Shown here: positions 1,022 to 33,525 of the stretch, piece after piece
How positions within the stretch are numbered: the stretch's first letter is position 1
How the letters are laid out: every line of letters begins with the position of its first letter
Source: Sphingomicrobium sp.
GTDB taxonomy: Bacteria; Pseudomonadota; Alphaproteobacteria; Sphingomonadales; Sphingomonadaceae
Reading direction: 5' to 3'
Length of the DNA stretch: 64,000 nucleotides
Assembly: GCA_051962455.1 (NCBI GenBank)
Contig: JBQCCG010000274.1
Span: forward strand, 1,465-65,464
Program-made: the position numbers and the translations under genes
The notes under the pieces: generated by a model
Database searches by the model: none
What the model was told of the DNA's origin: nothing
The model's input: the letters and a program-made list of their open reading frames with translations, nothing else

Positions 1022-3868
1022 TTACTTCGCCCCAACCACCTCAACCGGAATGCCGAGCGGATCGAGCTGCGGCTTCACCTTGGCCGCATCGCCGATCACC
1101 ACCCAGGTCAGCTTGCTGGGATCGATCGCCGCCTTGGCCGCGGCATCGAGCTGGGCTGCCGTCAATGACCGGTAACGGCTCGCCAGCGTCTCATAATAAT
1201 TGTCGGGGCGGTGGTAGAGCACGTTCGCCTGCATTCCACCCATGACCGCCGCGGTGGTCTCAAAGTTGCCCGGAAGCTCGCGGATTGCGCCGTCGATGGT
1301 CCGGCTCAACTCCTCCGGCGTGACCCCTTTCGTGTTGAGGAAGGTGCTGATGTCGCTTCGCATCGCTGCGATCGACGGCCCCGTCTGGTCCGTCTGGACG
1401 GGCGCGTAGATGAGATAGGGGACCTGGTGCTGCGGCCGGCTGATGAAGCTCGCCACGCCGTACGACCAATGCTTCGTCTCGCGGAGATCCGTGTTGAGTC
1501 TCGAGAGGAAGGATCCGCCGAGCACCTCATTTGACTGCATCAATGCCGTGAGCTCGTCCGTACCCTGCACAGGCAGCAGCTCGCCGCCGAAAATCAGCGA
1601 CTGCGGCGTATTCGGCCGGTCGATCAGCAGGATTCGCCCGGTCTGCGGGGCAGTGGGCACGGCGAAATTCTTGGCCGGCTTCGGACCGCTCTCGCGCCAG
1701 TCGCCGAAACTCTTTTCGAGCAGTGATTTGACCGCGGCAAGGCTGGTGTCGCCGACGACGAAGATGGTCGCGTTGTCGGGCCTAAGCCAGGCATTATGGT
1801 AGGCGGTGAGATCGGCCGGCGTGAGCTTCGCGACCGCAGCCGGATCGCCGCTTCCGCTAAACGGCACGCCGTAGGGGTGGGCCTTGCCGTAAAGGATTGG
1901 TGGCAAGGTCCTGAGCGCGATACCGACGGGCTGCTTCGCTTCCGCAGCGATCGCAGCGAGCTGCTGATTGCGCACGCGATCGACCTCGGCTGGAGCAAAA
2001 GCGGGATGACGGACGATATCTGCCATCAGATCGATCGACTGCGGCAGGTTAGCCGTGAGCGCCGACAGATAGACGCTGGACCGATCCATGCTCGGGGAGG
2101 CGGAGATTGCCGCGCCGAGGTTCTCCTTCGCCTGAGCGATTTCGACCGAGCTGAATTTGTCGGTCCCCTCGTCGAGCATTCCGAGCATGAATGACTGCGT
2201 GCCGAGAGCGGACTTCGGATCGGATGCATTGCCGGCATCGAAGCTGATCGCGACGCGGACCACCGGCACTCCGGTGCGGCGTGCAAACAGGATCGGGATT
2301 CCGTTCGAAAGCGTCGCATGCTCGACGGTGGGGAATTTAAGGTCGGCGATCTGCCCCATCGGCGGCAGCTGCGAGCGGTCGATCGCGCTCGCTGTCGTTG
2401 TCACCGCGGACTTCGGAGCCGCTGTGACCTTCGCCCCGGCGCCTCCGCCGGCAGTGTCGCTCGCAAGCTTCGATTCCTCGTAAGGCTCGCGCTTGCCTGG
2501 CGCTAGCGTGAAGGCAAATACCGGTCGCGACAGCCATTTCTTTGCTGCCGCCTGCACCTGGGCGGGCGTGAGCGCCGCTTCTTCGTCGAGCTCCTTCTTG
2601 TAGAATCCGGGATCGTTCGCGAACACGGCACCGCGGGCGAGCGTCACCGCCTTGCCGCCAAACCCGCCAACCGATTCGAGACCCTTGATCGTCGCTGCGA
2701 TGTCGGCGGTCTTGGCGCGCTTGAGCTCCTCGGCGGTCGGACCATTCTTGATGAACTTCGCGATGACTGCGTCGACCTGCCGGCCGACCAGCTCCGGATC
2801 GACTCCGGGCTTCACGGTCGCTTCGACGGTGAACTCGCCCACTCGTTCATGAGGGTCGACCCCTGCCGAGACGGAGACTGCCGTCTTCTTGTCGCGGACC
2901 AATTCGTTGTCGAGCCGGGAGCTGGCGAGGCCGCCGAGAACGCTCGCCGCCATCTCCAGCGCAGCCTCGTCCTTGCTCGTCACTCCGGGCACCGCCCAGG
3001 TCCGGTAGATGGTCGTATTCGCGACCTCGTCATGAAAGACCTTGTGCACCGGAGCCTTCAGGGTCGGCACCGTCGCGGCTGCCGGGATCGACTTCGGCCC
3101 TGCCGGGATGCTGCCGAAATATTTCTCGACAAGCGGCTTCGCTTCGGCCTCTGTGATGTCCCCGGCGAGGACCAACACCGCATTGTTGGGGCCGTAGTGC
3201 GAGCGGAACCAGTCCTTCACGACCTCTAGACTGGCGTGGTCGAGATCGGTCATCGAACCAATGACGGTGTGATGGTACGGATTTCCAGCCGGGTAGAGAG
3301 TCTGTTGGACCGCATATTGCAGCAAGCCGCCCGGCTGATTGTCGTCACCGCGCTTTTCGTTCTGGACGACACCGCGCTGAATATCGAGCTTCTCTTGTGT
3401 GACCGCCGGCAGCAGATAGCCCATGCGGTCGGATTCCATGAACAGCGCACGGTCGAGCGCCGCCTTGGGCACCGTCTCGAAATAATTGGTTCGGTCGAAG
3501 TTGGTCGTGCCGTTGAGGTCGGTCGCGCCCATCGCCTGCATCGGGCCGAACCAGCTGGTGTCGCTGTGCTCCGAACCGCCGAACATCAGATGCTCGAACA
3601 GGTGCGCAAAGCCGGTGCGGCCGGCCGGCTCGTCCTTGGAGCCGACATGGTACCAGACGGAGATCGCCACCACGGGAGCCTTGTGGTCCTCATGAACTAC
3701 GACGCGCAGCCCGTTCTTGAGCGTGAAGGTCGAATAAGGGATCGAAACGTCCTTCACGAGCGCCGAAATCGGCGCGCCCTGCGGCAGTTCGGCGGCGGCC
3801 AGCGGCGCCATTGGCGGCGTGAGCATCGTCGCGGCGGCGAGCAAGGCAAAGTTGCTGAGGTAACGCAT
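1022..3868 (-). CDS. M16 family (insulinase/pitrilysin-like) zinc metallopeptidase, secreted, two-module, about 948 aa
   Basis: Inverted zinc motif HLFEH in GFAHLFEHLMF, LNGTTNFDRTNY, and duplicated M16 N/C modules. The start is reassigned to ATG 3868 (MRYLSNFALLAAA, signal-peptide-like); the ORF-track extension to 4393 overlaps the divergent gene. Confidence 0.9.
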   Translation of the reverse strand: MRYLSNFALLAAATMLTPPMAPLAAAELPQGAPISALVKDVSIPYSTFTLKNGLRVVVHEDHKAPVVAISVWYHVGSKDEPAGRTGFAHLFEHLMFGGSEHSDTSWFGPMQAMGATDLNGTTNFDRTNYFETVPKAALDRALFMESDRMGYLLPAVTQEKLDIQRGVVQNEKRGDDNQPGGLLQYAVQQTLYPAGNPYHHTVIGSMTDLDHASLEVVKDWFRSHYGPNNAVLVLAGDITEAEAKPLVEKYFGSIPAGPKSIPAAATVPTLKAPVHKVFHDEVANTTIYRTWAVPGVTSKDEAALEMAASVLGGLASSRLDNELVRDKKTAVSVSAGVDPHERVGEFTVEATVKPGVDPELVGRQVDAVIAKFIKNGPTAEELKRAKTADIAATIKGLESVGGFGGKAVTLARGAVFANDPGFYKKELDEEAALTPAQVQAAAKKWLSRPVFAFTLAPGKREPYEESKLASDTAGGGAGAKVTAAPKSAVTTTASAIDRSQLPPMGQIADLKFPTVEHATLSNGIPILFARRTGVPVVRVAISFDAGNASDPKSALGTQSFMLGMLDEGTDKFSSVEIAQAKENLGAAISASPSMDRSSVYLSALTANLPQSIDLMADIVRHPAFAPAEVDRVRNQQLAAIAAEAKQPVGIALRTLPPILYGKAHPYGVPFSGSGDPAAVAKLTPADLTAYHNAWLRPDNATIFVVGDTSLAAVKSLLEKSFGDWRESGPKPAKNFAVPTAPQTGRILLIDRPNTPQSLIFGGELLPVQGTDELTALMQSNEVLGGSFLSRLNTDLRETKHWSYGVASFISRPQHQVPYLIYAPVQTDQTGPSIAAMRSDISTFLNTKGVTPEELSRTIDGAIRELPGNFETTAAVMGGMQANVLYHRPDNYYETLASRYRSLTAAQLDAAAKAAIDPSKLTWVVIGDAAKVKPQLDPLGIPVEVVGAK

Positions 3869-4003
3869 CAGCTTGAATTCTCCGGCTAATTTTCCGAGCA
3901 GGAGCGCGAACTTAACGGCCAGAGCGGAGTGCGCAACAGTGGAGGGGCGATGGACCGGATTTTTCGATGAACGGATGGTTGAATCCAGCGCGGCTCTCGC
4001 GCG

Positions 4004-5056
4004 ATGCCGCGGGGCGCTGCTAAGCTGACCGGCGTGATTGACCTCGCCTCGCTTCAGCCGATCGCCGAATATGAAAATGTCGGCAGCACCGAGTTCCTCG
4101 AGACGATACGCCCGGCTGGACAGCCGGCGGTGCTTCGCGGCCTCGCCAGTGATTGGCCCGCGGTCCGCGCGGCTCGGCGCTCGGACGAGGAGCTGTTCGC
4201 TTATTTGCGCCGTTTCCGCTCCGACGAACCCGTTCAGCACATCGTCGGTGCGCCCGAAATCGAGGGCCGGTTTTTCTACAGCGACGATCTTCGCGGCTTC
4301 AATTTCCAGCGCGGCATGTCTCCGCTCGATCCGTTCCTCGACTGGCTGCTGCGGCAGAAAGCGAATCCGCGCCCCTATGCGGTCGCGGTGCAATCCCAGG
4401 ATGTGCCGAGGCTACTGCCGGGGTTCGAGCTCGAGAATCGAACCGACCTCGTCCGGCCGGGCGTAGTGCCCCGCGCCTGGCTCGGCAACGCGATCCGCGT
4501 CGCGCCCCATTACGACCTCACCGAGAATGTTGGGGTCGTGGTCGCCGGCAAACGCCGCTTCATTCTCTTCGCGCCCGAGCAGCTCAAGAATCTGTATCCC
4601 GGACCATTCGAGCTGACGCCCGCCGGGACTCCGATCAGCCTGGTCGACCCGCTCAATCCCGATCTCGACCGTTACCCGAAGTTCGCAGATGCTCTGAAGG
4701 AAGCGCAGTTCGCGGAGCTCGAGCCGGGCGATGCGATCTATATCCCCTTTTATTGGTGGCACGGCGTCGATTCGCTCGAGGCCGTCAACCTCTTCATCAA
4801 CTACTGGTGGACCGATGCGCAGCCTGGAATGGGCAATCCTTACGACGCGCTCGCTTACACCATGTTCGCAATCAAAGGCCTTCCTCCCGAGCAGCGCGCG
4901 GTCTGGCGAAACGTGTTCGACCACTATGTTTACGAAGTGAACGGCGACCCCGGCGCGCATATGCCCGAAGACGCACGCGGCATTCTCGGAGAACTCAATC
5001 CGGCGATGATTGACCGTCTTCGCGATTACCTGCGCCTGGTCCTGAAAAGGCTCTAG
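4004..5056 (+). CDS. JmjC/cupin-like (Cupin_8 type) Fe(II)/2-oxoglutarate oxygenase-like protein
   Basis: PHYD (HxD), VVAGKRRFILF and LEPGDAIYIPFYWWHGV (distal His) match JmjC-type cupins. The true start may be a few codons later. Confidence 0.8.
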   Translation: MPRGAAKLTGVIDLASLQPIAEYENVGSTEFLETIRPAGQPAVLRGLASDWPAVRAARRSDEELFAYLRRFRSDEPVQHIVGAPEIEGRFFYSDDLRGFNFQRGMSPLDPFLDWLLRQKANPRPYAVAVQSQDVPRLLPGFELENRTDLVRPGVVPRAWLGNAIRVAPHYDLTENVGVVVAGKRRFILFAPEQLKNLYPGPFELTPAGTPISLVDPLNPDLDRYPKFADALKEAQFAELEPGDAIYIPFYWWHGVDSLEAVNLFINYWWTDAQPGMGNPYDALAYTMFAIKGLPPEQRAVWRNVFDHYVYEVNGDPGAHMPEDARGILGELNPAMIDRLRDYLRLVLKRL

Positions 5057-5070
5057 AAAATTTTCACGGC

Positions 5071-5099
5071 TTGACGGGCCGGCGGCACGGCCGTTAGCT
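5071..5099 (+). promoter_or_regulatory. Putative sigma70 promoter of the leader/TBDR operon
   Basis: TTGACG (5071-5076), a 17-bp spacer and TTAGCT (5094-5099) predict a TSS at about 5106-5107. Confidence 0.6.
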
Positions 5100-5106
5100 C
5101 GCGCGC

Positions 5107-5223
5107 ATGATGTTCGTGCCGGCCACCGCAATGATTCCACCCGCTGCTCTCGAGCAGGGCTGCTGGTGGCGCTGGCATTCGGCACAGGCGGGCGCGCGCG
5201 CGTGGCGATGGCGTAAGAGCTAG
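5107..5223 (+). CDS. Trp-rich attenuator leader peptide, 38 aa: MMFVPATAMIPPAALEQGCWWRWHSAQAGARAWRWRKS
   Basis: Hand translation from ATG 5107 to TAG 5221-5223 gives 5 TGG codons (5164, 5167, 5173, 5203, 5209). The ORF lies between a promoter and an intrinsic terminator and is below the ORF-track cutoff. Confidence 0.75.
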   Translation: MMFVPATAMIPPAALEQGCWWRWHSAQAGARAWRWRKS

Positions 5224-5270
5224 GCTCTTAACCCACTCACTCGAAGCCCGCCCATCCGGCGGGCTTTTTT
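5140..5270 (+). promoter_or_regulatory. Ribosome-dependent transcription attenuator (protector/antiterminator/terminator)
   Basis: GGCGGGC (5187-5193) is identical to the terminator 3' arm and can pair with the 5' arm GCCCGCC (5246-5252). CCCGCTG (5140-5146) can pair with CAGGCGGG (5185-5192) with one bulge. Inner stems are 5200-5205/5233-5238 and TAAGAGC/GCTCTTA (5214-5230). Confidence 0.7.
5244..5270 (+). terminator. Intrinsic terminator (attenuator) upstream of the TBDR start
   Basis: Perfect 9-bp stem AAGCCCGCC-CATCC-GGCGGGCTT running into a T6 tract (5265-5270), ending 27 nt before ATG 5298. Confidence 0.85.
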
Positions 5271-5297
5271 ATTGCCCTCGCCACCCGAAGGTTCGTC

Positions 5298-8069
5298 ATG
5301 AAGCCTGCCCCTCGTGCGCTCTGCAGCGTCCCTGCTGCCGCATTGTTTGTCTGTTCCGCGCCCGCCCTGGCGCAATCGGCGCCACCCGATCAGATCGTCG
5401 TTACCGGGTCGCGATTGCCGGCGGGGGTGCGCGCCCCGACTCCGCTGACCGTGCTCGGCGCTCAAGCGATCGAGGATCGCGCACCGGCCACCATCGGTGA
5501 AATTCTCCAACAAATTCCGAGCTTCGGCGAGATCGATTCACCGAATACTGCCGGCGTCAATTCACGCGGCGGCGGGCAAATCAATCCCGACCTGCGCGGC
5601 CTCGGCGCGACCCGGACGCTCGTCCTCATCGACGGCCGCCGCCACGTACCGACTGCGACGAATGGCTCCGTCGACCTCAAGGTCGTCCCGACTCTGCTCG
5701 TCGATCGGGTCGAGGTCGTCACCGGCGGCGCGTCAGCAGCCTACGGTTCCGATGCCGTGTCGGGCGTGGTCAACATCGTCCTCAAGGACGACTTCAGCGG
5801 GATCCGCGGCACAGCCGACTACGGCATTTCCGAGCATGGCGACGGAGAGGAACGCCGGCTGTCGCTCGCCGGTGGCACCGCATTCGCGGGCGGCCGCGGC
5901 CACATCATGGCCGGCTTCGATTATGTGAAGATCGGCGGAATCGGAACGCAGCTTACCCGCGACTGGGGCCGGCGGGACGTCGGCCTGATCACCAATCCGA
6001 ACTTCATGGCCAACGGCCTGCCCAACTACATCATTTCGCCCAACGTCCATTCGGCGATCACCACTCCGGGCGGACTGATCGTCAGTGGACCCCTGCGCGG
6101 AATCGCCTTCGGACCTGGAGGGACGACCTACAATTATGACTTGGGTCAGGTCTTCGGCTCGACGATGATCGGCGGCGACGGCGCCAATCAGAACGAGAAC
6201 CTGCTCGCGCTGCTCGGAACCCCGATCGAATCCGTCAATGCACTCGCTTCGGCCAAGTTCGACGTGACTCCCGACGTCCAGCTCTACGCCGAGATATCGG
6301 GCGGATTTTCCGACACCGGTGGCGCAAGCCAGGAATCGCGCGATCGGGGCAATCTCTTAATCCACCGCGACAACGCCTTCCGCCCCGCACCCGTCCGTAA
6401 CCTGATGGTGGCCGACAACCTCCAGACGATCACCATCGGGCGGGTCAGCTACGACACGGGCAAGATCAAGCTTGATCGCGAGGACGGGACCTACGAAGCC
6501 GTCGCCGGAGTCACGACGCATTTCGGCGCGTGGACGGCCGACGCGTCCGTGCAATATGGCAAGAACGTCTATGACCTCGACTTCGGCCCGAACAACCGCA
6601 AGCAGAACGAATATCTGAACGCGGTCGACGCCGTCCTCGACCCGGCGACCGGCCACATCGTCTGCCGCTCGACGCTGACCAATCCCGCAAACGGTTGCAT
6701 CCCCGTCAACGTCTTCGGCGACGGCTCGCTGACGCTCAACCCCTACGTCAACGGGACCGCAGAGTTCCGGCTGGTGACGACCCAGGCCGTCGCCTCGGCG
6801 AACCTTCGCGGTACGCCATTTTCGACTTGGGCCGGCCCAGTCGCCCTCGCATTCGGGATCGAGGGGCGCCGCGATCATGCGGTAGGAACATCCGACGCGA
6901 TCTCGCAGCGGGTCAACGCCAACCGGTCGATCGGCGGGTGGCTGCTCGGCAATCAGCTTCCCGAGGTCGGCACGATCCGCGTCTTGGAGACCTATGCCGA
7001 GGCGCAGGTGCCGTTGGCGAAGGACATGCCTCTGGCCCGCGAGCTCAGCGTCAACGGCGCGATCCGCCGGACCCGTTATTCGCTGAGCGGCACGGTCTAC
7101 ACCTGGAAGGCCGGCGCTTCATACGTGCCCTTCTCTGGGCTTCGGCTTCGCGCCACTCGCTCGCGCGACATCCGTGCGCCGAACATCAGCGAATTGTTCG
7201 AGAATGGCGGGAGTTCGAACACCAACGTGTTCGACCCGGTGCTCGGCCGCGCCGTGCAGATCCGCGAGATCGAGGCGGGCAATCCAAACCTTAAGCCGGA
7301 GAAAGCCAACACGCTAACTGCCGGCGCGATAGTCCAGCCGGCATTCCTCCCGCGCTTCAGCGCCTCGGTCGATTACTACGACATCAGGATCAGGGACGCG
7401 ATCGCGACGCTCGGGGCTCCGACGCTCGCGCAGGGCTGCTTCGCCGGCAGCCAGCTCTACTGTCAGTCGATCACCTTCAACTCCGACGGAAGCATCGCCT
7501 TCATCGCCAATACGAGGCTCAATCTCGCGCAGGCGGCGACGCGCGGGATCGACTTCGAGCTCAACTACTCCCAGCCGCAAGTGTTCGGCGGAAAGCTGAC
7601 CACGAGGCTTCTGGGGACGCGGGTCCTGAAGCTGACCTCGACCACGCCGGCCGGAGTCCAGGACCGGCTTGGTCAGGTGAGCAATTTCAACCGGACGGCG
7701 GGCGTTCCCAAATGGGTCGGCGACGCCTTCCTCGATTACGATCGCGGACCCGTCCACTTCGGCCTGCAGGCGCGCTTCGTGGGCCCAGGTGTGTTCAGCA
7801 CGGTGCTTCACGACGGCAGCGGTCCCAACTCAATCAACCGCAACAGCGTCCCGGCCTTTCTCTATCTGAATCCCTCCGGCTCATACCGGTTCAGGCTCCG
7901 CGACGGCCGCTCGGTCGAGCTGTTCACCGCCGTCAACAACCTCCTCGACAAGGATCCGCCGATGATCCCGTCCGGCGCCGCCGGCGGCATCAACGAGAGC
8001 AGCACCAACGGCCAATTTTACGACGTCGTCGGCCGCTTCTTCCGATACGGCGCCCGCTTCAGCATTTAG
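5298..8069 (+). CDS. TonB-dependent receptor, 923 aa
   Basis: Signal peptide, TonB box DQIVVTGSR, plug motifs LRGLGATRTLVLIDGRR and RVEVVTGGASAAYGSDAVSGVVN, NPNLKPEKA, and a C-terminal beta-strand ending GARFSI. Confidence 0.95.
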   Translation: MKPAPRALCSVPAAALFVCSAPALAQSAPPDQIVVTGSRLPAGVRAPTPLTVLGAQAIEDRAPATIGEILQQIPSFGEIDSPNTAGVNSRGGGQINPDLRGLGATRTLVLIDGRRHVPTATNGSVDLKVVPTLLVDRVEVVTGGASAAYGSDAVSGVVNIVLKDDFSGIRGTADYGISEHGDGEERRLSLAGGTAFAGGRGHIMAGFDYVKIGGIGTQLTRDWGRRDVGLITNPNFMANGLPNYIISPNVHSAITTPGGLIVSGPLRGIAFGPGGTTYNYDLGQVFGSTMIGGDGANQNENLLALLGTPIESVNALASAKFDVTPDVQLYAEISGGFSDTGGASQESRDRGNLLIHRDNAFRPAPVRNLMVADNLQTITIGRVSYDTGKIKLDREDGTYEAVAGVTTHFGAWTADASVQYGKNVYDLDFGPNNRKQNEYLNAVDAVLDPATGHIVCRSTLTNPANGCIPVNVFGDGSLTLNPYVNGTAEFRLVTTQAVASANLRGTPFSTWAGPVALAFGIEGRRDHAVGTSDAISQRVNANRSIGGWLLGNQLPEVGTIRVLETYAEAQVPLAKDMPLARELSVNGAIRRTRYSLSGTVYTWKAGASYVPFSGLRLRATRSRDIRAPNISELFENGGSSNTNVFDPVLGRAVQIREIEAGNPNLKPEKANTLTAGAIVQPAFLPRFSASVDYYDIRIRDAIATLGAPTLAQGCFAGSQLYCQSITFNSDGSIAFIANTRLNLAQAATRGIDFELNYSQPQVFGGKLTTRLLGTRVLKLTSTTPAGVQDRLGQVSNFNRTAGVPKWVGDAFLDYDRGPVHFGLQARFVGPGVFSTVLHDGSGPNSINRNSVPAFLYLNPSGSYRFRLRDGRSVELFTAVNNLLDKDPPMIPSGAAGGINESSTNGQFYDVVGRFFRYGARFSI

Positions 8070-8084
8070 AAAAGGACACCCGCA

Positions 8085-9758
8085 ATGTCGCGTTCCATCA
8101 CGTTCGCCATCGCCCTGCTCAGCTCGTCCGCCGCACTCGCCGCTGCGCCGGCCGACCTCATCATCCGCGACGCGCATATCGTTACGGTCGACGCGGACTT
8201 CTCGATCGCGCAGGCAGCGGCGATTCAAGACGGGAAGTTTATCGCCGTCGGGACCGATGCCAAGGTTCTCAAGACCAAAGGTCCGAACACCCGCGTGATC
8301 GATCTGGATGGGCAGACCGTGCTCCCCGGTTTCAACGACACGCATGTCCACCTGACCGCCGGCGAGGACCTTCCCGTCCAGGTCGACCTCACGCACATTC
8401 GCTCGATCAGGGATATCCAGACGGCCCTTGCCGCGCGCGCGAAGCAGGAGAAGCCCGGCGACTGGATCGTCGGCACCCGCGGCTGGTGGGAGTATCAGCT
8501 CGCCGAAGGCCGGCTTCCGACCCGCTTCGATCTCGACACCGCAGCGCCGAACAATCCGGTCGCGATCCCCGGACCCCATTATGTGATCGTCAATAGCCTT
8601 GCGCTGAAGCTGGCCGGGGTCACTCGTGATACGCGCGATCCCCAGGGCGGCCAGATCTTCCACGATGCCAAGGGCGAGCCGACCGGGCTGCTGATGGACA
8701 ATGCGAGCCGCTTCGTCCGCAAGTTCATGCCCCGGCCAACCGAGGCGCAGAAGGAAGCGGGCCTCAAGCGCGTGCTGGCGCTGGTCAACAGCCATGGCCT
8801 GACCAGCGCTGGCGACCCGAGCGGCTCGCCAGCAGACGCGGCCCTGTTCCGCAAGCTGCGCGATGCAGGCCAGCTCACCGTGCGGGTGGATTTCGCCTAC
8901 AACATCGACCCCGCGGAGCCGCTCGATAAGGTCGAGGCGGAGTTGAACGCGTTACCCAGACCCGGCTCCGACGGCGAGGGAATGTTCCGCTCCGACGAGA
9001 TCGGCGAAACCGGCCTCGACGGCGCCGAGCTGACCGCGCTTCTCGAGCACGATTACCCGGGCAGGCCCGGGTACCGCGGCCTTCAGAAGGTTCCGACCGA
9101 ACAGTTTGAGAAGTTCGCCGCCCTCGTCGCGAAATGCGGCTATCGCCTGCGCCCGCACGCGGTCGGCGACGCTGCGATCGACGAAGCGCTCGACGCCTTT
9201 TAATATGCCAATACGCAAACCCCGATCACCAAGCGCCGCTGGATGATCGACCACGCATTCCTGCTCGAGCCGCAGCATTATGCGCGCGTGAAGCGCCTGG
9301 GCCTGATCATCAACTCGCAATACATGCACAATTACGAGCTGGGCGCTCTGATCCTGAAAGCGTGGAAGCGTCCGCTCGCCGACCGAAGCGAGCCCTACGC
9401 CGAATGGCTGAAGAATGGGATCATGTTCGCCGGCGGGTCGGACGGTCCGATCTCTTACTATGCCGAGCCCCTGCTCGAGATTTACGGCGAGGTGACCCGC
9501 GGTACGCAATGGGGCGGCAGGTTGGGTCCGGACCAGGGGATTTCGCGCGAGGACGCGATCCGCTCGATGACGATCAACGGCGCCTACACGACCTTCGAGG
9601 AGAACGTGAAAGGCTCGATCGAGCCGGGCAAGTACGCCGACTTCGTCATTCTCTCGGGCGATATACTGAAAGTGCCGGCGGAGAAGATCCGCGACCTCAA
9701 AGTGCTCGCTACCGTTCTGGGCGGCCGCACCGTTTACGGTTCGCTCGGAAAGCCGTGA
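8085..9758 (+). pseudogene. Secreted YtcJ-like (amidohydrolase_3) metallo-amidohydrolase with one in-frame TAA at 9201-9203 (nonsense allele or sequencing error)
   Basis: ORFs 8085..9203 and 9243..9758 are in the same frame and read DAF*YANTQTPITKRRWMIDHA across the stop. Motifs are DTHVH, PHAVGD, IDHA, GGSDGP and GSIEPGKYADF, with an N-terminal signal peptide. Confidence 0.8.
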
Positions 9759-9770
9759 AGGGGTCGAGGA

Positions 9771-10316
9771 TCAGGCCGTGCGCAGCGGACGCCGTTCGCG
9801 GCGACGGCGCAGAGCCAGGCCAATTCCGGCAAAGCCGAGGAGCATCAATGCCCAGGACGCCGGCTCCGGCACGGCGCCGGTCTGATAGAGAACGGCCGCC
9901 GATGAGGCCGGAATATTGAGCGAGATTGTGTTTGTTGGAGACGTGAAATCGAATTGGAAGAAACCAGTCGAATTGCCGACGCCGGAGCCGTTCCCGAAAT
10001 GGATACCGATGATCGTGTCGCCGAACAGCGTCGTGCCGAAGTTCAACACCGTGGCCCCGTTCAGGTCGTCAATCTTGGTGTAGTCGTTGAAGTTGGTAAA
10101 CGTGAGCCCGAGCGAGGCCAGCGCGTCGGTCTGCGTCGTCACGTCGGCAGGGCTGTTATCGAGCACGTTTCCGTCGAAAAATCCCGCGCATGCCGTCGCT
10201 CCCGAAACGAGGCTGAGCGACGAGCTGCAGTTCACCGGGTCTGCGGCGAACGCCGGACTGGCCGCCATCGCGGCTGATGAAAATGCCACTGCAAAAAGGG
10301 CTGAACGCAATCTCAC
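9771..10316 (-). CDS. PEPxxWA-CTERM sorting-domain surface protein, 181 aa
   Basis: Signal peptide, Cys pair near the N-terminus, C-terminal VPEPASWALMLLGFAGIGLALRRRR, and a GGAGG RBS upstream of the GTG. Confidence 0.9.
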   Translation of the reverse strand: MRLRSALFAVAFSSAAMAASPAFAADPVNCSSSLSLVSGATACAGFFDGNVLDNSPADVTTQTDALASLGLTFTNFNDYTKIDDLNGATVLNFGTTLFGDTIIGIHFGNGSGVGNSTGFFQFDFTSPTNTISLNIPASSAAVLYQTGAVPEPASWALMLLGFAGIGLALRRRRERRPLRTA

Positions 10317-10621
10317 GACTCGCCTCCACGCTCCGCAACATGTGCCAATGAAGGGTCTGAAATCGCCGTGTCGCGGTCATGGTTCCTAGTGCTGTTGCAT
10401 TTTTAATGGAGTCGCTAGGGCGACGGAAATCGTGACCGTTTCGGACCCGAAAAGGGCCGAAATCAGCCATTCCCATCATCATTGGAGAGCGCAGCATCTC
10501 GTTTGCAGTTCGGCCTGGCGCCAACGCGCAAGTAAAAAAACTGTTAACATTGGGCAAGGAATCTGGTTTACTGAGAGTTAATGGCCTCTCCGAGTCGGGG
10601 GCGTACATTCGGAGGTTGAAT

Positions 10622-11158
10622 ATGCGTAATCTTCTTATCGGTATCGCCGGCGCGACCGCGCTGGCCCTCAGTTCGGCGGCGAATGCCGGGATCACGATCG
10701 GTTCGACTTCCGGTCTGGCGGGCACTCCGATCGTACAGAACGGACCACCAATCACGGTAAGCTCAACGGTGGCTTCGACGCCTAGCGGCACCTTCGATGC
10801 ATGGTTTGAATTCACCAACGATGCAGCCGGCCTTTACAACATTGTGGTCAGCAGCAGCACGACTGGTGAAATCATCAACTACATCAAGCTGCAGACCAGT
10901 GGCGGCGGTACCACCTTGGACGAGATCCTTGGATCATCGGGCACGCTGAATTTCGATAACGTCTCGCTCGGGTCCGGTACCTATCGGCTCGCCTTCGGCG
11001 GTTCGGGCGCAGCGAACGCCGCCGCAACGGGCAACTTCACCTTCTATGTGCAGGCGGTTCCTGAGCCGGCAACGTGGGCGCTGATGCTGCTCGGCTTCGC
11101 CGGTGTCGGTGTCGCCATGCGCTTCCGCCGTCGTCCGGCCCTCGCGCAGGTCGCCTAA
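10622..11158 (+). CDS. PEPxxWA-CTERM protein, FxDxF-like family, paralog A, 178 aa
   Basis: GGAGG RBS then ATG 10622, signal peptide, FDAWF, and VPEPATWALMLLGFAGVGVAMRFRRR. Confidence 0.9.
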   Translation: MRNLLIGIAGATALALSSAANAGITIGSTSGLAGTPIVQNGPPITVSSTVASTPSGTFDAWFEFTNDAAGLYNIVVSSSTTGEIINYIKLQTSGGGTTLDEILGSSGTLNFDNVSLGSGTYRLAFGGSGAANAAATGNFTFYVQAVPEPATWALMLLGFAGVGVAMRFRRRPALAQVA

Positions 11159-11177
11159 TCGATCATCATTAACATTG

Positions 11178-11212
11178 GGGCGGTCCCGACCAGTTCGGGA
11201 CCGCCCTTTTTT
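11178..11212 (+). terminator. Intrinsic terminator after paralog A
   Basis: 12-bp stem GGGCGGTCCCGA-CCAGT-TCGGGACCGCCC followed by T6. Confidence 0.85.
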
Positions 11213-11394
11213 GCGGCTGCGACAGAGCGGCGGCCGACCGGGCAGGCGGGCCCACGAACGTCCAACTTTGGGACAAATCTCGGCGTGGGGGAAAACACCT
11301 ACGTAAATTAAATGGCTCGATTCAGCGGAACGAATCGGTTAACATATTGTTAGTTTGCTATCGTGGCGTTCGAGTTAATTGGCGGGAGGCGTAT

Positions 11395-11931
11395 ATGCGT
11401 AAACTGGTACTGTCCTTGGTCGGGTCCACCGCCCTGGCGTTCGGTTCGGCAGCAAATGCCGGCATCACAATCGGCGCCACGTCCGGTCTGGCGGCGACTC
11501 CAATCGTTCAAAACGGACCTCCGATCACGGTAAGCTTCACCGCGACAGCGATGCCGACGAATGCCTTCAGCGCGTGGTTCGATTTCACCAACGATGCGGC
11601 GGGCCTATATAACATCGTGGTCAGCAGCAGCACGAGCGGCGAGATGATCAACGACATCTGGCTGCAGAGCAGTGACGGCCTTACTACCTTGTTTTCCGCA
11701 AGCGGCTCGAGCAATTCGTTGAATCTCAATGGGGCTTCGCTTGGAGCCGGCGAATATCGCCTGGCCTTCGATGGCTCAGGAGCGACGAACGCCGCTGCGA
11801 CCGGCAACTTCACCTTTTACGTCCAGGCAGTTCCGGAGCCGGCGACGTGGGCGCTGATGCTTCTCGGCTTCGCGGGTGTCGGTTTCGCCATGCGCTTTCG
11901 GCGACGCCCGGTCCTCGCCCAGCTCGCCTGA
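11395..11931 (+). CDS. PEPxxWA-CTERM protein, paralog B, 178 aa
   Basis: GGGAGG RBS, ATG 11395, collinear with paralog A, VPEPATWA tail. Confidence 0.9.
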   Translation: MRKLVLSLVGSTALAFGSAANAGITIGATSGLAATPIVQNGPPITVSFTATAMPTNAFSAWFDFTNDAAGLYNIVVSSSTSGEMINDIWLQSSDGLTTLFSASGSSNSLNLNGASLGAGEYRLAFDGSGATNAAATGNFTFYVQAVPEPATWALMLLGFAGVGFAMRFRRRPVLAQLA

Positions 11932-11955
11932 AGGATCGAAAGGGAATGCCGCATG

Positions 11956-11988
11956 AGGGCGGTGCCGTCGGCGCCGCCCTTCTTCATT
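11956..11988 (+). terminator. Probable terminator after paralog B
   Basis: AGGGCGGTGCC-GTC-GGCGCCGCCCT followed by a weak tail TCTTCATT. Confidence 0.6.
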
Positions 11989-12170
11989 GAAGAACTGCGC
12001 AAGCCAGACGTTACAACAACAATAAGTCGCTTTCTGTTTCGGCGAGAGAGCATTCACCCTCGTGCCCGAAATACAACACAATCCACTTTAATTAAACAGC
12101 AATAGGAACAAAGGCGCTTTACTGCACATTCACCGGCGTCCGCTAAAAATCGAGACACCGGGAGGCCCAA

Positions 12171-12707
12171 GTGCACAAGCTATTTCTTACTGCTGTTGGC
12201 GCTACACTTGTAGCGACTGCGTCGATGTCGAATGCCGCGATCACAATCGGCACGACTTCAGGCCTGGCGGCCACTCCGATCGTCCAGAATGGGCCCCCGA
12301 TCACCGTCAGCTTCACGGCGAGCTCGACTCCGACCGGCACGTTCAATTCCTATTTTGATTTCATGAACGACGCCGCGGGCCTGTACAACATTGTGGTCAG
12401 CAGCAGCACGAGTGGCGAAATGATCTCCTACATCAAGCTGCAGACGATGGACGGTCTCACCGATCTGTTCACCGCGACAGGGTCATCAAATGTGCTCAAT
12501 CTGAATGGCGCATCACTCGGGGCCGGCGACTATCGCCTGGCCTTCGGCGGTTCGGGCGCGGCTAACGCCGCCGTGACCGGCAATCTCTCCTTCAATGTAC
12601 AGGCCGTTCCGGAGCCAGCGACCTGGGCATTGATGCTCCTCGGCTTTGCGGGCGTGGGTGTCGCACTGCGCCGCCGTCGCAGACCGCAACTGGCGCAGCT
12701 CGCTTAA
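12171..12707 (+). CDS. PEPxxWA-CTERM protein, paralog C, 178 aa
   Basis: GGGAGG RBS, GTG 12171, collinear with A and B, VPEPATWA tail. Confidence 0.9.
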   Translation: MHKLFLTAVGATLVATASMSNAAITIGTTSGLAATPIVQNGPPITVSFTASSTPTGTFNSYFDFMNDAAGLYNIVVSSSTSGEMISYIKLQTMDGLTDLFTATGSSNVLNLNGASLGAGDYRLAFGGSGAANAAVTGNLSFNVQAVPEPATWALMLLGFAGVGVALRRRRRPQLAQLA

Positions 12708-12770: not shown

Positions 12771-12863
12771 AGTTATGACCCTGCCGGGCGATCGGCAGCA
12801 GCTGCTTCGCGCACCTTGAAATGGCGCACCGCCAAGCGCAGTTGGGCCGTGAAGGAGACTGCC

Positions 12864-13952
12864 ATGGCCACCCAGGCCGCTGAAAAGACCATTCTCGGCC
12901 TCGAGAATCCGATGGGGACCGATGGGTTCGAGTTTGTCGAATATACCGCGCCCGACATCGAACTGTTGCGTTCGCTGTTCACGAAGATGGGTTTCCCCGA
13001 AGTCGCCCGGCACAAGAGCAAGAACGTCACGCTCCACAAGCAGGCCGACTGCAACTTCATCATCAACGCCGAGCCGGGATCCTATGCCGAGGAATATGCG
13101 AGGGCCCATGGCCCAAGCGCTTGCGCGATGGCCTTCCGGGTCAAGGACGCGAAAGCCGCGCACGATCGCGCACTCAAGCTCGGTGCGACCAACGTCGAGG
13201 TGAAGAAGGGCGCCGGCGAGCTCGACATCCCGGCGATCGAGGGCATTGGCGGGTCGCGGCTGTTCTTTGTGGACCGTTATGGCAGTAACGGATCGATTTA
13301 CGAGGTCGATTTCGATTTCCATCCGGACTGGCGACAGCGGATGGCTCAAGCGGACTCGAAGCTGACCTACATCGATCACCTGACCCACAACGTGAACCGC
13401 GGGCGCATGGCGGTCTGGGCCGACTTCTATGAGCGGCTCTTCAACTTCCGCGAGATCCGCTACTTCGACATCGAGGGGAAGCAGACCGGCCTCTTCTCCA
13501 AGGCGATGACCTCGCCCTGCGGCAAGATCCGCATCCCGCTGAACGAGAGCCAGGACGACAAGAGCCAGATCGAGGAATTCCTGCGCGAATATAAGGGCGA
13601 GGGCATCCAGCACATCGCGCTCGGCACGTCCGACATTTACCAGGCGGTTGACATCATCAGGGCGCGCGGCATTCCCTTCCAGGATACGCCCGACACCTAT
13701 TACGAGTTGCTCCCCGAGCGCATCAAAGGCCACCAGGAAAGCATCCCCGAGCTGGAGAAGCGCCGAATCCTGATGGACGGCGCCCCGACCGAGGGGCAGG
13801 GCCTGCTGCTGCAGATCTTCACCCAGAATGTGATCGGTCCGATCTTTTTCGAGATCATCCAGCGCAAGGGCAACGAGGGCTTCGGCGAAGGCAATTTCAA
13901 GGCGCTGTTCGAGAGCATCGAACTCGACCAGATGCGTCGCGGGGTTATCTGA
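12864..13952 (+). CDS. hppD: 4-hydroxyphenylpyruvate dioxygenase
   Basis: NPMGTDGFEFVE, IDHLTHNV, GEGIQHIA, LLQIFT and FFEIIQRKGNEGFGEGNFKALFESIE. AGGAG RBS before ATG 12864. Confidence 0.95.
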   Translation: MATQAAEKTILGLENPMGTDGFEFVEYTAPDIELLRSLFTKMGFPEVARHKSKNVTLHKQADCNFIINAEPGSYAEEYARAHGPSACAMAFRVKDAKAAHDRALKLGATNVEVKKGAGELDIPAIEGIGGSRLFFVDRYGSNGSIYEVDFDFHPDWRQRMAQADSKLTYIDHLTHNVNRGRMAVWADFYERLFNFREIRYFDIEGKQTGLFSKAMTSPCGKIRIPLNESQDDKSQIEEFLREYKGEGIQHIALGTSDIYQAVDIIRARGIPFQDTPDTYYELLPERIKGHQESIPELEKRRILMDGAPTEGQGLLLQIFTQNVIGPIFFEIIQRKGNEGFGEGNFKALFESIELDQMRRGVI

Positions 13953-31881: not shown

Positions 31882-33525
31882 ATGGCCACTATAGCACCGC
31901 GCGCGCCGCGCCGCGGCAGGATCAAGCCACTCGACGAGATACTCGCGACGGCCGAAAAGAAGTCGCTCAAGCGCTCGCTCGGCGCTTTCCAGCTAACCCT
32001 GCTGGGGATCGGTGCGGTCATCGGCACCGGAATTTTCGTCCTGACAGCGACCGCAGCGCAAAAGGCTGGCCCCGGGATGATGGTCAGCTTCATGGTCGCC
32101 GGCGCGGTCTGCGCCGTGGCCGCGCTCTGCTATTCCGAGCTCGCGTCGATGGTGCCGGTTGCGGGCTCCGCCTACACTTACTCCTACGCCGTGATGGGCG
32201 AGATCGTCGCCTGGCTGGTCGGCTGGGCGCTGATCCTCGAATATGCGCTTGGCGCGAGCGCGGTCGCGGTCGGCTGGTCCGGTTTCATCACCGGTCTGCT
32301 GAACTCCATCGGGATACACGTGCCTCACGCATTGGCGGTCGGTCCGCCGATCCAATGGGGCTTCCTCCAGGGCGGCGAAGTCGGTGGCCTGATCAACCTG
32401 CCCGCCGTGCTGGTGGTGGCATTCGTCACGGCCCTGCTCGTCATCGGCACCAAGGAAAGCGCGACGTTCAACGCCATCCTGGTGCTCATCAAGGTCTCCG
32501 CGTTGACACTGTTCCTGGTCATCACCTTGCCGATGGTCAGCGGCCACATGAGTAACTTCCAACCCTTCGCACCACGTGGCTGGGGTAATCCTCTGAGCTC
32601 GTCAGGCACGGGTATATTGGGCGCCGCCGCGTCGATCTTCTTCGCCTATGTCGGCTTCGACGCGGTCTCGACCGCGGCCGAGGAAACGCGAAACCCGCAG
32701 CGCAATGTTCCGATCGGCCTGATCGGATCGCTGCTCATCTGCACGGTGTTCTACCTGCTCGTCTCGGCCGGCGTGGTCGGAGCTTATGGCGCGCAGCCGC
32801 TGCTCGATCCGGCAACAGGGATTCCGTTCAAGGAAGGCTCGCCGGAGCTTTATGCCGCCGCTGCCTGCCACGCCGCGAACGCCCCGACCGTATGTTCGAA
32901 GGAAGCGCTCGCTCACATTCTGCGCGAGGTGTCGAACCCGCTGTTCGGTAACCTGGTCGGCCTCGCGGCAGCCATTGCGCTGCCCTCGGTCGTGCTGCTG
33001 ATGATGTATGGCCAGACGCGAATCTTCTTCGTCATGGCGCGCGACGGACTGCTTCCCGAGCGCTTGTCGACCGTCCATCAGCGCTTTCGGACGCCGTATG
33101 TCGTGACGATCGTGACGGGTGTCGTGGTGGCAATCGCCGCCGCCTTCCTCCCGGTCGGCACGCTGGCGGATTACTCCAATGCCGGAACGCTCTTCGCCTT
33201 CGCCGCAGTATCGCTGGGCGTCATGATCCTGCGCAAGAAGGACCCGAACCGGCCGCGTCCGTTCCGCACCCCGGCGCTGTTCATCGTAGCCCCGCTGTCG
33301 ATCGCTGGCTGCGTGCTGCTGTTCATCAATTTGAACAATGAATCGAAGCTGCTGTTCGTCACCTGGACGGTAATCGGGCTCATCTTCTACTTCCTCTACG
33401 GCTATCGCCACAGCAACGTCGCTCGCGGCATCGTCGAGGTTCCGGAGGTCGCACCCGAAGCGCCAGGTTCGATCGGCATTGCGCCGATGCCGGGTGCGCC
33501 GGTTCCCCCGAAGGATCTGGGCTAA
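31882..33525 (+). CDS. APC-family amino acid permease (cationic amino acid transporter-like)
   Basis: GIGAVIGTGIF, CYSELAS, GSAYTYSY, FFAYVGFDAVST, RIFFVMARDGLLP and many TM segments. Confidence 0.93.
   Translation: MATIAPRAPRRGRIKPLDEILATAEKKSLKRSLGAFQLTLLGIGAVIGTGIFVLTATAAQKAGPGMMVSFMVAGAVCAVAALCYSELASMVPVAGSAYTYSYAVMGEIVAWLVGWALILEYALGASAVAVGWSGFITGLLNSIGIHVPHALAVGPPIQWGFLQGGEVGGLINLPAVLVVAFVTALLVIGTKESATFNAILVLIKVSALTLFLVITLPMVSGHMSNFQPFAPRGWGNPLSSSGTGILGAAASIFFAYVGFDAVSTAAEETRNPQRNVPIGLIGSLLICTVFYLLVSAGVVGAYGAQPLLDPATGIPFKEGSPELYAAAACHAANAPTVCSKEALAHILREVSNPLFGNLVGLAAAIALPSVVLLMMYGQTRIFFVMARDGLLPERLSTVHQRFRTPYVVTIVTGVVVAIAAAFLPVGTLADYSNAGTLFAFAAVSLGVMILRKKDPNRPRPFRTPALFIVAPLSIAGCVLLFINLNNESKLLFVTWTVIGLIFYFLYGYRHSNVARGIVEVPEVAPEAPGSIGIAPMPGAPVPPKDLG

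Follow-up and report, generated by a model that had tools for sequence, protein, structure and literature searches.

In a Sphingomicrobium sp. (GenBank assembly GCA_051962455.1, contig JBQCCG010000274.1), the leader unit in front of a TonB-dependent receptor gene is quite probably a trpL-type ribosome-mediated transcription attenuator, which would sense charged tRNA-Trp and control an operon of the receptor and a periplasmic YtcJ-like amidohydrolase. The whole stretch of DNA analysed, 64,000 nucleotides (nt) long, is called the window here. Leader-peptide attenuators are textbook regulators of amino-acid biosynthesis, and the non-biosynthetic target genes are what makes this case unusual: the controlled genes would be the receptor and an Amidohydro_3 hydrolase, neither of which makes tryptophan (Trp) or charges its tRNA. 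The placement of the leader before these two genes suggests that the cell turns on a scavenging system when it is short of Trp. The leader and the operon are made up of the following elements.

5071-5100, plus strand: sigma70-like promoter, with the -35 element TTGACG (5071-5076), a spacer of 17 nt and the -10 element TTAGCT(C) (5094-5100)
5107-5223, plus strand: leader open reading frame (ORF) of 38 codons from ATG (5107) to TAG (5221-5223), with five Trp codons; peptide MMFVPATAMIPPAALEQGCWWRWHSAQAGARAWRWRKS
5164-5175, plus strand: Trp cluster 1, TGG TGG CGC TGG (WWRW), the proposed ribosome stall site
5187-5193, plus strand: region 2, GGCGGGC, the 5' arm of the predicted antiterminator, with the same letters as the terminator 3' arm (5258-5264)
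5203-5214, plus strand: Trp cluster 2, TGG CGA TGG CGT (WRWR), within the antiterminator 5' arm
5187-5252, plus strand: predicted antiterminator hairpin of 66 nt, with the base GGCGGGC:GCCCGCC (5187-5193 with 5246-5252)
5202-5205 with 5237-5240 and 5209-5211 with 5233-5235, plus strand: middle pairs of the antiterminator, GUGG with UCAC and UGG with CCA, respectively
5214-5220 with 5224-5230, plus strand: apical stem of the antiterminator, with the stop codon TAG (5221-5223) as its loop
5243-5270, plus strand: intrinsic terminator, with the stem 5243-5252 / 5258-5267, the loop CATCC and six T (5265-5270)
5271-5276, plus strand: conserved ATTGCC straight after the T tract, with TTG invariant and CC nearly so
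5287-5291, plus strand: likely Shine-Dalgarno sequence GAAGG of the receptor gene; GAAGG, GAAAG or GAGAG is kept 6-9 nt before the ATG
5298-8069, plus strand: TonB-dependent receptor of 923 amino acids (aa), the first structural gene (Pfam Plug and TonB_dep_Rec_b-barrel)
8085-9758, plus strand: second gene, a YtcJ-like amidohydrolase (Amidohydro_3; Pfam and PDB matches) that has a signal peptide at its N-terminus

The Trp codons of the leader ORF start at 5164, 5167, 5173, 5203 and 5209. The terminator (AAGCCCGCC/GGCGGGCTT) has nine perfect pairs, or ten over 5243-5267 according to a terminator scan tool, and the distance from its T tract to the receptor ATG (5298) is 27 nt in the window and about 27-29 nt in most loci. 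The original prediction for this DNA had named a promoter at 5071-5099, the 38-codon ORF with five Trp codons, an antiterminator arm GGCGGGC (5187-5193) that repeats the terminator 3' arm, and the perfect 9-bp terminator with six T lying 27 nt before the receptor ATG; each of these was found as described. The likeness to the trpL layout holds as well, in the conserved Trp-rich leader ORF, the terminator before the structural gene and the alternative pairing that uses the terminator 5' arm. For the antiterminator, the prediction gave a 7-bp arm; the arm was borne out, and the full element is larger, a 66-nt hairpin with the stop codon in its loop.

All of the 29 aligned leaders share TTGAC in the -35 element and TA in the -10 element at a fixed spacing, while the letters of the spacer vary. 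These elements resemble the Caulobacter-type consensus (TTGACGS / GCTANAWC), and the promoter at 5071-5100 was not flagged by a generic sigma-70 scan. The leader mRNA is probably leaderless, with a transcription start at or next to the ATG (5107), since the ATG lies only 7 nt past the -10 element (7-9 nt across the aligned leaders) and no Shine-Dalgarno-like sequence was found 5' of it in the window or in the aligned leaders. Leaderless mRNAs are frequent in Alphaproteobacteria.

The leader unit was sought among relatives by a scan with receptor-protein alignments, which used one genome per species, was blind to the leader, and returned 18 orthologous loci. The unit is found in 13 of the 16 loci that include the region 5' of the gene, and in every one of the 13 loci in which receptor identity is at least 75%; it is absent from L013, L014 and L018 (receptor identity 61-65%), which have a plain promoter-like upstream region instead. 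The cultured isolate Sphingomonas flavescens CP133016.1 has it too (L140, 5779-5975). A DNA pattern scan of metagenomes gave 120 stretches, of which 19 are true leaders and the other 101 are chance matches inside GC-rich coding sequence. The leader unit is therefore known from 33 related loci (13 genome loci, L140 and 19 metagenome contigs), with the qualification that the 19 were chosen by a pattern holding the conserved motifs and count only for the variable parts and the gene linkage. Searched with a nucleotide profile of the leader, the loci give matches at E values of 2e-29 to 8e-48, in a single copy at each locus, and the window shows no second copy; one further match (L055, 29.6 bits) was discarded, as it sits in the 3' end of a 467-aa gene. 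The window has four hairpin-plus-T-run terminators on the plus strand and none on the minus strand, only two of them with stems of at least ten pairs, and no other attenuator-like terminator is found in it.

The upstream neighbours of the leader vary and include a cupin gene, a divergent M16 peptidase gene, a divergent gene that by eye resembles acyl carrier protein, and others; hence, the unit is not the end of an upstream gene. Likewise, the hairpin cannot be taken for the terminator of the cupin gene, because the unit is also found behind unrelated and divergently transcribed genes. Receptor homologs with source names come from Sphingomicrobium or Sphingomonas, and DNA nearly identical to the window is present in many soil and rhizosphere metagenomes. 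The organism itself is known from soil metagenomes alone; among public sequencing runs, the matches were all soil-metagenome DNA contigs, and two RNA runs showed no reads over this region.

Five TGG codons in a 38-codon ORF are, taken alone, not a compelling signal in GC-rich DNA. L140 and all but one of the 29 aligned loci have a homologous ORF, 35-38 codons long and with 4-6 Trp (11-17%), so that the ORF and its Trp codons are indeed kept in orthologous receptor upstream regions, as the original prediction would have it. The distance from the ATG to Trp cluster 1 is 48, 51, 54 or 57 nt, and each of these four length classes is a multiple of three. The first half of the leader peptide is essentially unconserved and the C-terminal half is conserved, with M1, W23, W33, R34 and W35 invariant and W20, A28, G29 and R36 nearly so. 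Cluster 1 keeps two or three Trp codons in every sequence; its Arg codon is exchanged between the synonymous CGC and CGT or gives way to Cys or His, with the TGG codons on either side unchanged, and several lineages have gained a further Trp two codons past the cluster (WWRWSW, WWRWQW, WWRWRW). A leader ORF that is translated, with Trp codons selected as such, fits these alignments, because the N-terminus is free, the frame is kept over the length classes, and Trp codons are fixed or gained. Cluster 2 is invariant at the nucleotide level with the exception of L010. GGCGGGC is nearly invariant at a fixed distance from both clusters, and every sequence has 11 nt between the end of cluster 1 and region 2.

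The exception (L010, 4761-4960, from an assembly with 2.6x coverage) has GGG for the second TGG of cluster 2 and no stop codon, and its ORF runs in frame into the receptor gene; a sequencing error or decay of this copy is the probable cause. Strain-level variation was also seen in the window. Compared with a near-identical public contig, it has 17 differences over 11.6 kb, and five of them (5140, 5147, 5148, 5157 and 5177) are packed into 38 nt of the leader, in the variable part around cluster 1. These five amount to P12A, A14V, H24R and a silent change at Q17, with the Trp codons unchanged. The segment 5140-5177 looks like a hot spot of such variation.

The RNA folds of the aligned leaders are consistent with two competing hairpins. 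The terminator is part of the lowest-energy fold of the full leader in 25 of 29 sequences, and every cell of its stem is pairable across the 29 sequences. When transcripts are cut before the terminator 3' arm, GGCGGGC:GCCCGCC pairs in the lowest-energy fold of 23/29, and the segment from GGCGGGC to GCCCGCC, folded alone, gives one long hairpin in all 29; in 28 of them the stop codon sits in the apical loop. Within this hairpin, a conserved CCAC or UCAC is the partner of the first cluster 2 TGG (as GUGG). After realignment of the antiterminator segment with a covariance model, the apical stem shows compensatory changes in five of its seven pairs; the 22 double-change cells compare with 6.5 ± 3.7 in shuffled controls, none of 500 shuffles reaches this value and slid registers give at most 9, although such counts lean towards the structure because the alignment was fitted to it. 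Other pairings were considered. The E. coli-style helix between regions 1 and 2 (cluster 1 with GGCGGGC) is pairable in 88.5% of cells and shows no covariation. A helix between the ATTGCC past the T tract and GGCGATGG of cluster 2 is likewise pairable, in 97.8% of cells against at most 59% in slid registers, and lacks covariation; in read-through transcripts it would join UUAUUGCC to GGCGAUGG.

The order of events proposed for the attenuator is as follows. The leader would be transcribed from at or beside the ATG at 5107 and its 38 codons translated, and the antiterminator (5187-5252) would fold by default once transcribed, its base consuming the terminator 5' arm. With Trp plentiful, the ribosome would trail the polymerase through GGCGGGC and cluster 2 to the stop codon in the apical loop and so occupy or unwind the 5' arm, which a translating ribosome must unwind, as the stop codon sits in the antiterminator loop. 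With the antiterminator lost, GCCCGCC would pair with the downstream GGCGGGC, and transcription would terminate at the T tract (about 5268). Under a shortage of charged tRNA-Trp, the ribosome would stall at 5164-5175 with its leading edge at about 5176-5186, just before position 5187; the antiterminator would then form and the polymerase would read into the operon. A ribosome at 5164-5175 should leave GGCGGGC free because the stall site lies 12-23 nt upstream of it, and on this point the geometry agrees with what had been proposed. The stall itself and the direction of the response to Trp are inferred.

The operon is linked to the leader throughout. Receptor orthologs (73-91% identity) come after the leader in every locus with enough downstream sequence, and in the metagenomes, where 17 of the 19 leaders were checked (L129 and L134 were left out), an ortholog is found behind 16, the exception (L044) being a contig that ends 222 nt past the motif. 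An intact amidohydrolase of about 550 aa, with a signal peptide, follows 15-70 nt 3' of the receptor gene in relatives wherever the contig extends that far, and the pair is also present in orthologs without the leader. Two of the latter have a second amidohydrolase paralog downstream, in tandem and 56% identical in L014 (3956-7232) and 33% identical in L013 (10915-12045). The nearest solved relatives of the amidohydrolase are uncharacterised metal-dependent hydrolases (3icj, 3igh), and NCBIfam matches are only weak and below threshold. In the window, the amidohydrolase gene has an in-frame TAA at 9201-9203, a codon that in every relative encodes Glu or Asp (GAA or GAT). At 9201, near-identical contigs from four independent public soil or rhizosphere runs read G and not T; hence, the TAA is private to the window, either as a strain-specific nonsense mutation or as an assembly error. 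A split or frameshifted gene was ruled out, since the ORF at 9134-9919 is an out-of-frame artefact and the gene is one frame with this single in-frame TAA.

Both proteins are poor in Trp when they stand behind the leader. Mature receptors have 6-7 Trp behind the leader against 10-12 in three orthologs without it (about 40% fewer), and the amidohydrolase has 6-7 (8 in L007, where the ORF is over-extended) against 9-10. At column 394 of the receptor alignment, the three outgroups all have W, and every leader-bearing sequence has A. The low Trp content is a hint of proteins that are made under Trp shortage. As for their function, the pair may take up an amide or peptide that contains Trp and hydrolyse it in the periplasm, by which Trp would be salvaged. 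A fuller version of this idea, an outer-membrane Trp-salvage pathway that would be new, is tentative and is given less than an even chance: the receptor would import a Trp-bearing amide or peptide, the YtcJ-type amidohydrolase would free the Trp, uncharged tRNA-Trp would switch the system on through a leaderless attenuator with a default antiterminator and the stop codon in its loop, and the two proteins would have evolved a low need for Trp.

Several results weigh against the attenuator reading and the Trp-salvage role. A ribosome parked at the stop codon leaves GGCGGGC itself uncovered, so that the OFF state has to be argued from steric effects or unwinding, or from a possible helix between regions 1 and 2. 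Cluster 2 (5203-5211) is placed where a stall would favour termination, a misfit with the simple model; base pairing inside the hairpin, where both of its TGG codons are paired in the antiterminator fold, or some further role would account better for its conservation. The folding test named in the original prediction came out in two parts, in that the full leader does give the terminator, whereas a ribosome mask at cluster 1 puts the antiterminator in the lowest-energy fold of cut transcripts in only 15/29, steric effects lying outside the folding model. Its stem covariation fared likewise. The apical stem covaries, while the switch itself depends on pairings (regions 2:3 and 3:4) that do not vary among the aligned leaders, and covariation over the 7-bp base and the terminator thus speaks neither for nor against them. 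Pairing of cluster 1 with C-rich sequence near the 5' end, predicted nearly everywhere, was rejected (9.7 pairs against 8.8 in shuffled controls). The metagenome leaders are no independent evidence for the conserved motifs, as the motifs were in the selection pattern. Lastly, the link to tryptophan metabolism is indirect, characterised close relatives of the receptor and the hydrolase were not found, and the Trp depletion is only a hint because it sets one clade against three outgroups.

Part of this evidence may be read in other ways. A generic translation-coupled attenuator, reporting leader translation overall and with it general starvation or ribosome availability, could keep its TGG codons mainly for UGG:CCA helices without any sensing of tRNA-Trp. 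It would account for the pairing of both cluster 2 TGG codons with CCA/CAC in the antiterminator fold, for the ability of cluster 1 to pair with an upstream CCACC-like sequence, and for a conserved core that is invariant at synonymous positions too. It is nevertheless unlikely, for cluster 1 is fixed while its possible partners shift in sequence and position and pair no better than shuffles, extra Trp codons arose at new positions next to cluster 1, validated trpL peptides typically carry WWR and RWRWR motifs, and the Trp-poor regulated proteins point to Trp specifically. The Trp could also be sensed in its free form by a TnaC-like nascent peptide, possibly alongside tRNA-Trp sensing; high Trp would then halt the ribosome on or close to the stop codon, with the antiterminator held open and termination as the result. 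TnaC is marked by W12, D16 and a C-terminal Pro before the stop codon, and regulates through blocked release and Rho. The conserved C-terminal half of the leader peptide, with 15 codons always between cluster 1 and the stop and with AG and WRWR[KR]x-stop conserved, the structurally critical place of the stop codon, and the role that cluster 2 would thereby receive all favour such a peptide, which is still rather improbable here: the signature is absent from 29/29 peptides (no Pro before the stop, no conserved Asp), the conserved stretch is also fixed at synonymous sites, which indicates a constraint at the RNA level, and the terminator is intrinsic, with no Rho site and no sign that Rho is involved.

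The remaining alternatives detach the leader from the receptor transcript or give its peptide a function of its own. With its complete promoter and strong terminator, the unit would give rise to a free RNA of about 160 nt, and RNAs derived from attenuators can act in trans (PMC6614838), so the leader could be an independent small gene or a dual-function small RNA, with the receptor transcribed separately and the adjacency due to shared function or to regulation in trans as with rnTrpL. The close spacing of about 27-29 nt between the T tract and the receptor ATG in most loci, a gap that has a Shine-Dalgarno-like sequence and no promoter-like hexamers, speaks against separate transcription; moreover, a duplicate of the terminator arm in the antiterminator would be pointless for a free-standing gene, and the leader is never seen without the receptor in the examined loci with enough downstream sequence. 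This makes an independent leader very unlikely. The least probable of the alternatives, and a highly improbable one, is a functional Trp/Arg-rich peptide (antimicrobial-like, signalling or a modified-peptide precursor) that is imported or processed by the receptor and the hydrolase. The cationic WWRW...WRWRK composition is indeed like that of Trp/Arg-rich antimicrobial peptides, and the C-terminal half is conserved, but neither a signal peptide nor a gene for export or modification is conserved beside the ORF, the N-terminal half is unconstrained, and a terminator between precursor and partner genes, together with the duplicated arm, is a hallmark of attenuation. The ribosome-mediated attenuator sensing charged tRNA-Trp is the preferred reading.

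Among known systems, the best Rfam match of the leader is Trp_leader RF00513 (24.4 bits, E value 0.012), and its alignment covers UGGUGGCGC and the GCCCGC...GCGGGCUUUUUU terminator. At 24.4 bits against a gathering score of 41, the leader is by the Rfam rule not a member of RF00513, and no Rfam family reaches its gathering threshold in the window. The leader is like E. coli trpL, the system of RF00513, in its short ORF with adjacent Trp codons followed by Arg (UGGUGGCGC), in the GCCCGC...GCGGGC-U-run terminator with an alternative pairing through the terminator 5' arm, and in the predicted logic, by which a stall at the Trp codons would lead to read-through. It differs in having 35-38 codons and two Trp clusters instead of 14 codons, in an ORF that crosses region 2 and ends in the antiterminator loop, whereas the E. 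coli ORF stops before region 2, in the lack of a Shine-Dalgarno sequence on a probably leaderless mRNA, and in a transporter and a hydrolase downstream in place of trpEDCBA.

Compared by layout, another case, from the same bacterial class, is the ribosome-dependent Trp attenuator trpL-trpE(G) of Sinorhizobium meliloti. Its terminated leader RNA, rnTrpL, is released, and the peptide peTrpL is also derived from the attenuator (PMC6614838, PMC7298713); the terminated leader described here could in principle act in trans as well. The S. meliloti leader peptide has 14 aa and precedes anthranilate synthase trpE(G), unlike the 35-38 aa and non-biosynthetic genes found here. The trpL peptides of Pseudomonas aeruginosa carry RWRWRA, and their Trp sensing was shown by Trp-to-Ala substitutions (PMC13434334). 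The AWRWRK (GCG-TGG-CGA-TGG-CGT-AAG) and WWRW of the present leader resemble this motif, although trpL1 and trpL2 have a single Trp cluster each, and not two, and control trpE and trpGDC.

Regulation of receptors by leader RNA is known from riboswitches, such as the cobalamin riboswitch with btuB and the TPP riboswitch with a Shewanella receptor (PMC2659441). Those systems share with the proposed attenuator a cis-acting 5' leader RNA that turns import on when the nutrient is lacking. Riboswitches bind the metabolite directly, whereas the predicted sensor here is a ribosome translating Trp codons. In Firmicutes, TRAP and T-box leaders extend the control by Trp status to uptake genes, and not to biosynthesis alone. 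Their sensor is also a different one, an RNA-binding protein for TRAP and uncharged tRNA for the T-box, and they control inner-membrane permeases of gram positive bacteria. In a comparative survey, amino-acid attenuators were found to govern mostly biosynthetic genes (PMC3766115). No Trp attenuator on a TonB-dependent receptor was found in Rfam or in the full-text literature, a search outside which most subscription journals lie, and within that range the earlier statement that no described case was known stands.

Upstream of the leader, the window holds the following two genes.

1022-4393, minus strand: M16 peptidase, two units (Pfam)
4004-5056: Cupin_8 (JmjC-like) protein (Pfam)

The M16 ORF is up to 1123 aa long from its first start codon, and its true start is probably further in, because the 5' part overlaps the Cupin_8 gene. 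A divergent secreted-type M16 peptidase neighbours the leader in five loci, and such a neighbour may hint at peptide scavenging. Behind the operon, a cluster of small proteins with PEP-CTERM or PEPxxWA-CTERM sorting signals is encoded on both strands (9771-12707), with a strong 12-bp terminator at 11178-11206; similar genes are also found behind the operon in L001, L002 and L140. The catabolism of aromatic amino acids is represented by a 4-hydroxyphenylpyruvate dioxygenase gene 3 kb past the operon (12816-13952), and an amino-acid permease gene is present at 31882-33525. Pfam annotation of the window between 14 and 38 kb gave no tryptophan biosynthesis genes.

An attenuator on a TonB-dependent receptor would extend leader-peptide control to the import of nutrients across the outer membrane, and, if the reading is true, it would be the first known amino-acid leader-peptide attenuator on an outer-membrane transporter. 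Three departures from the E. coli model, namely the probable lack of a 5' untranslated region, the end of the ORF in the antiterminator loop and the presence of two Trp clusters, could reveal how attenuation works on leaderless mRNAs. Experiments are feasible, since the cultured strain S. flavescens CP133016.1 carries the leader. For the orphan receptor-hydrolase pair that is common in soil Sphingomicrobium, the leader gives a testable clue to the cargo, a Trp-yielding compound, and would thereby assign a cargo class to an orphan receptor family.

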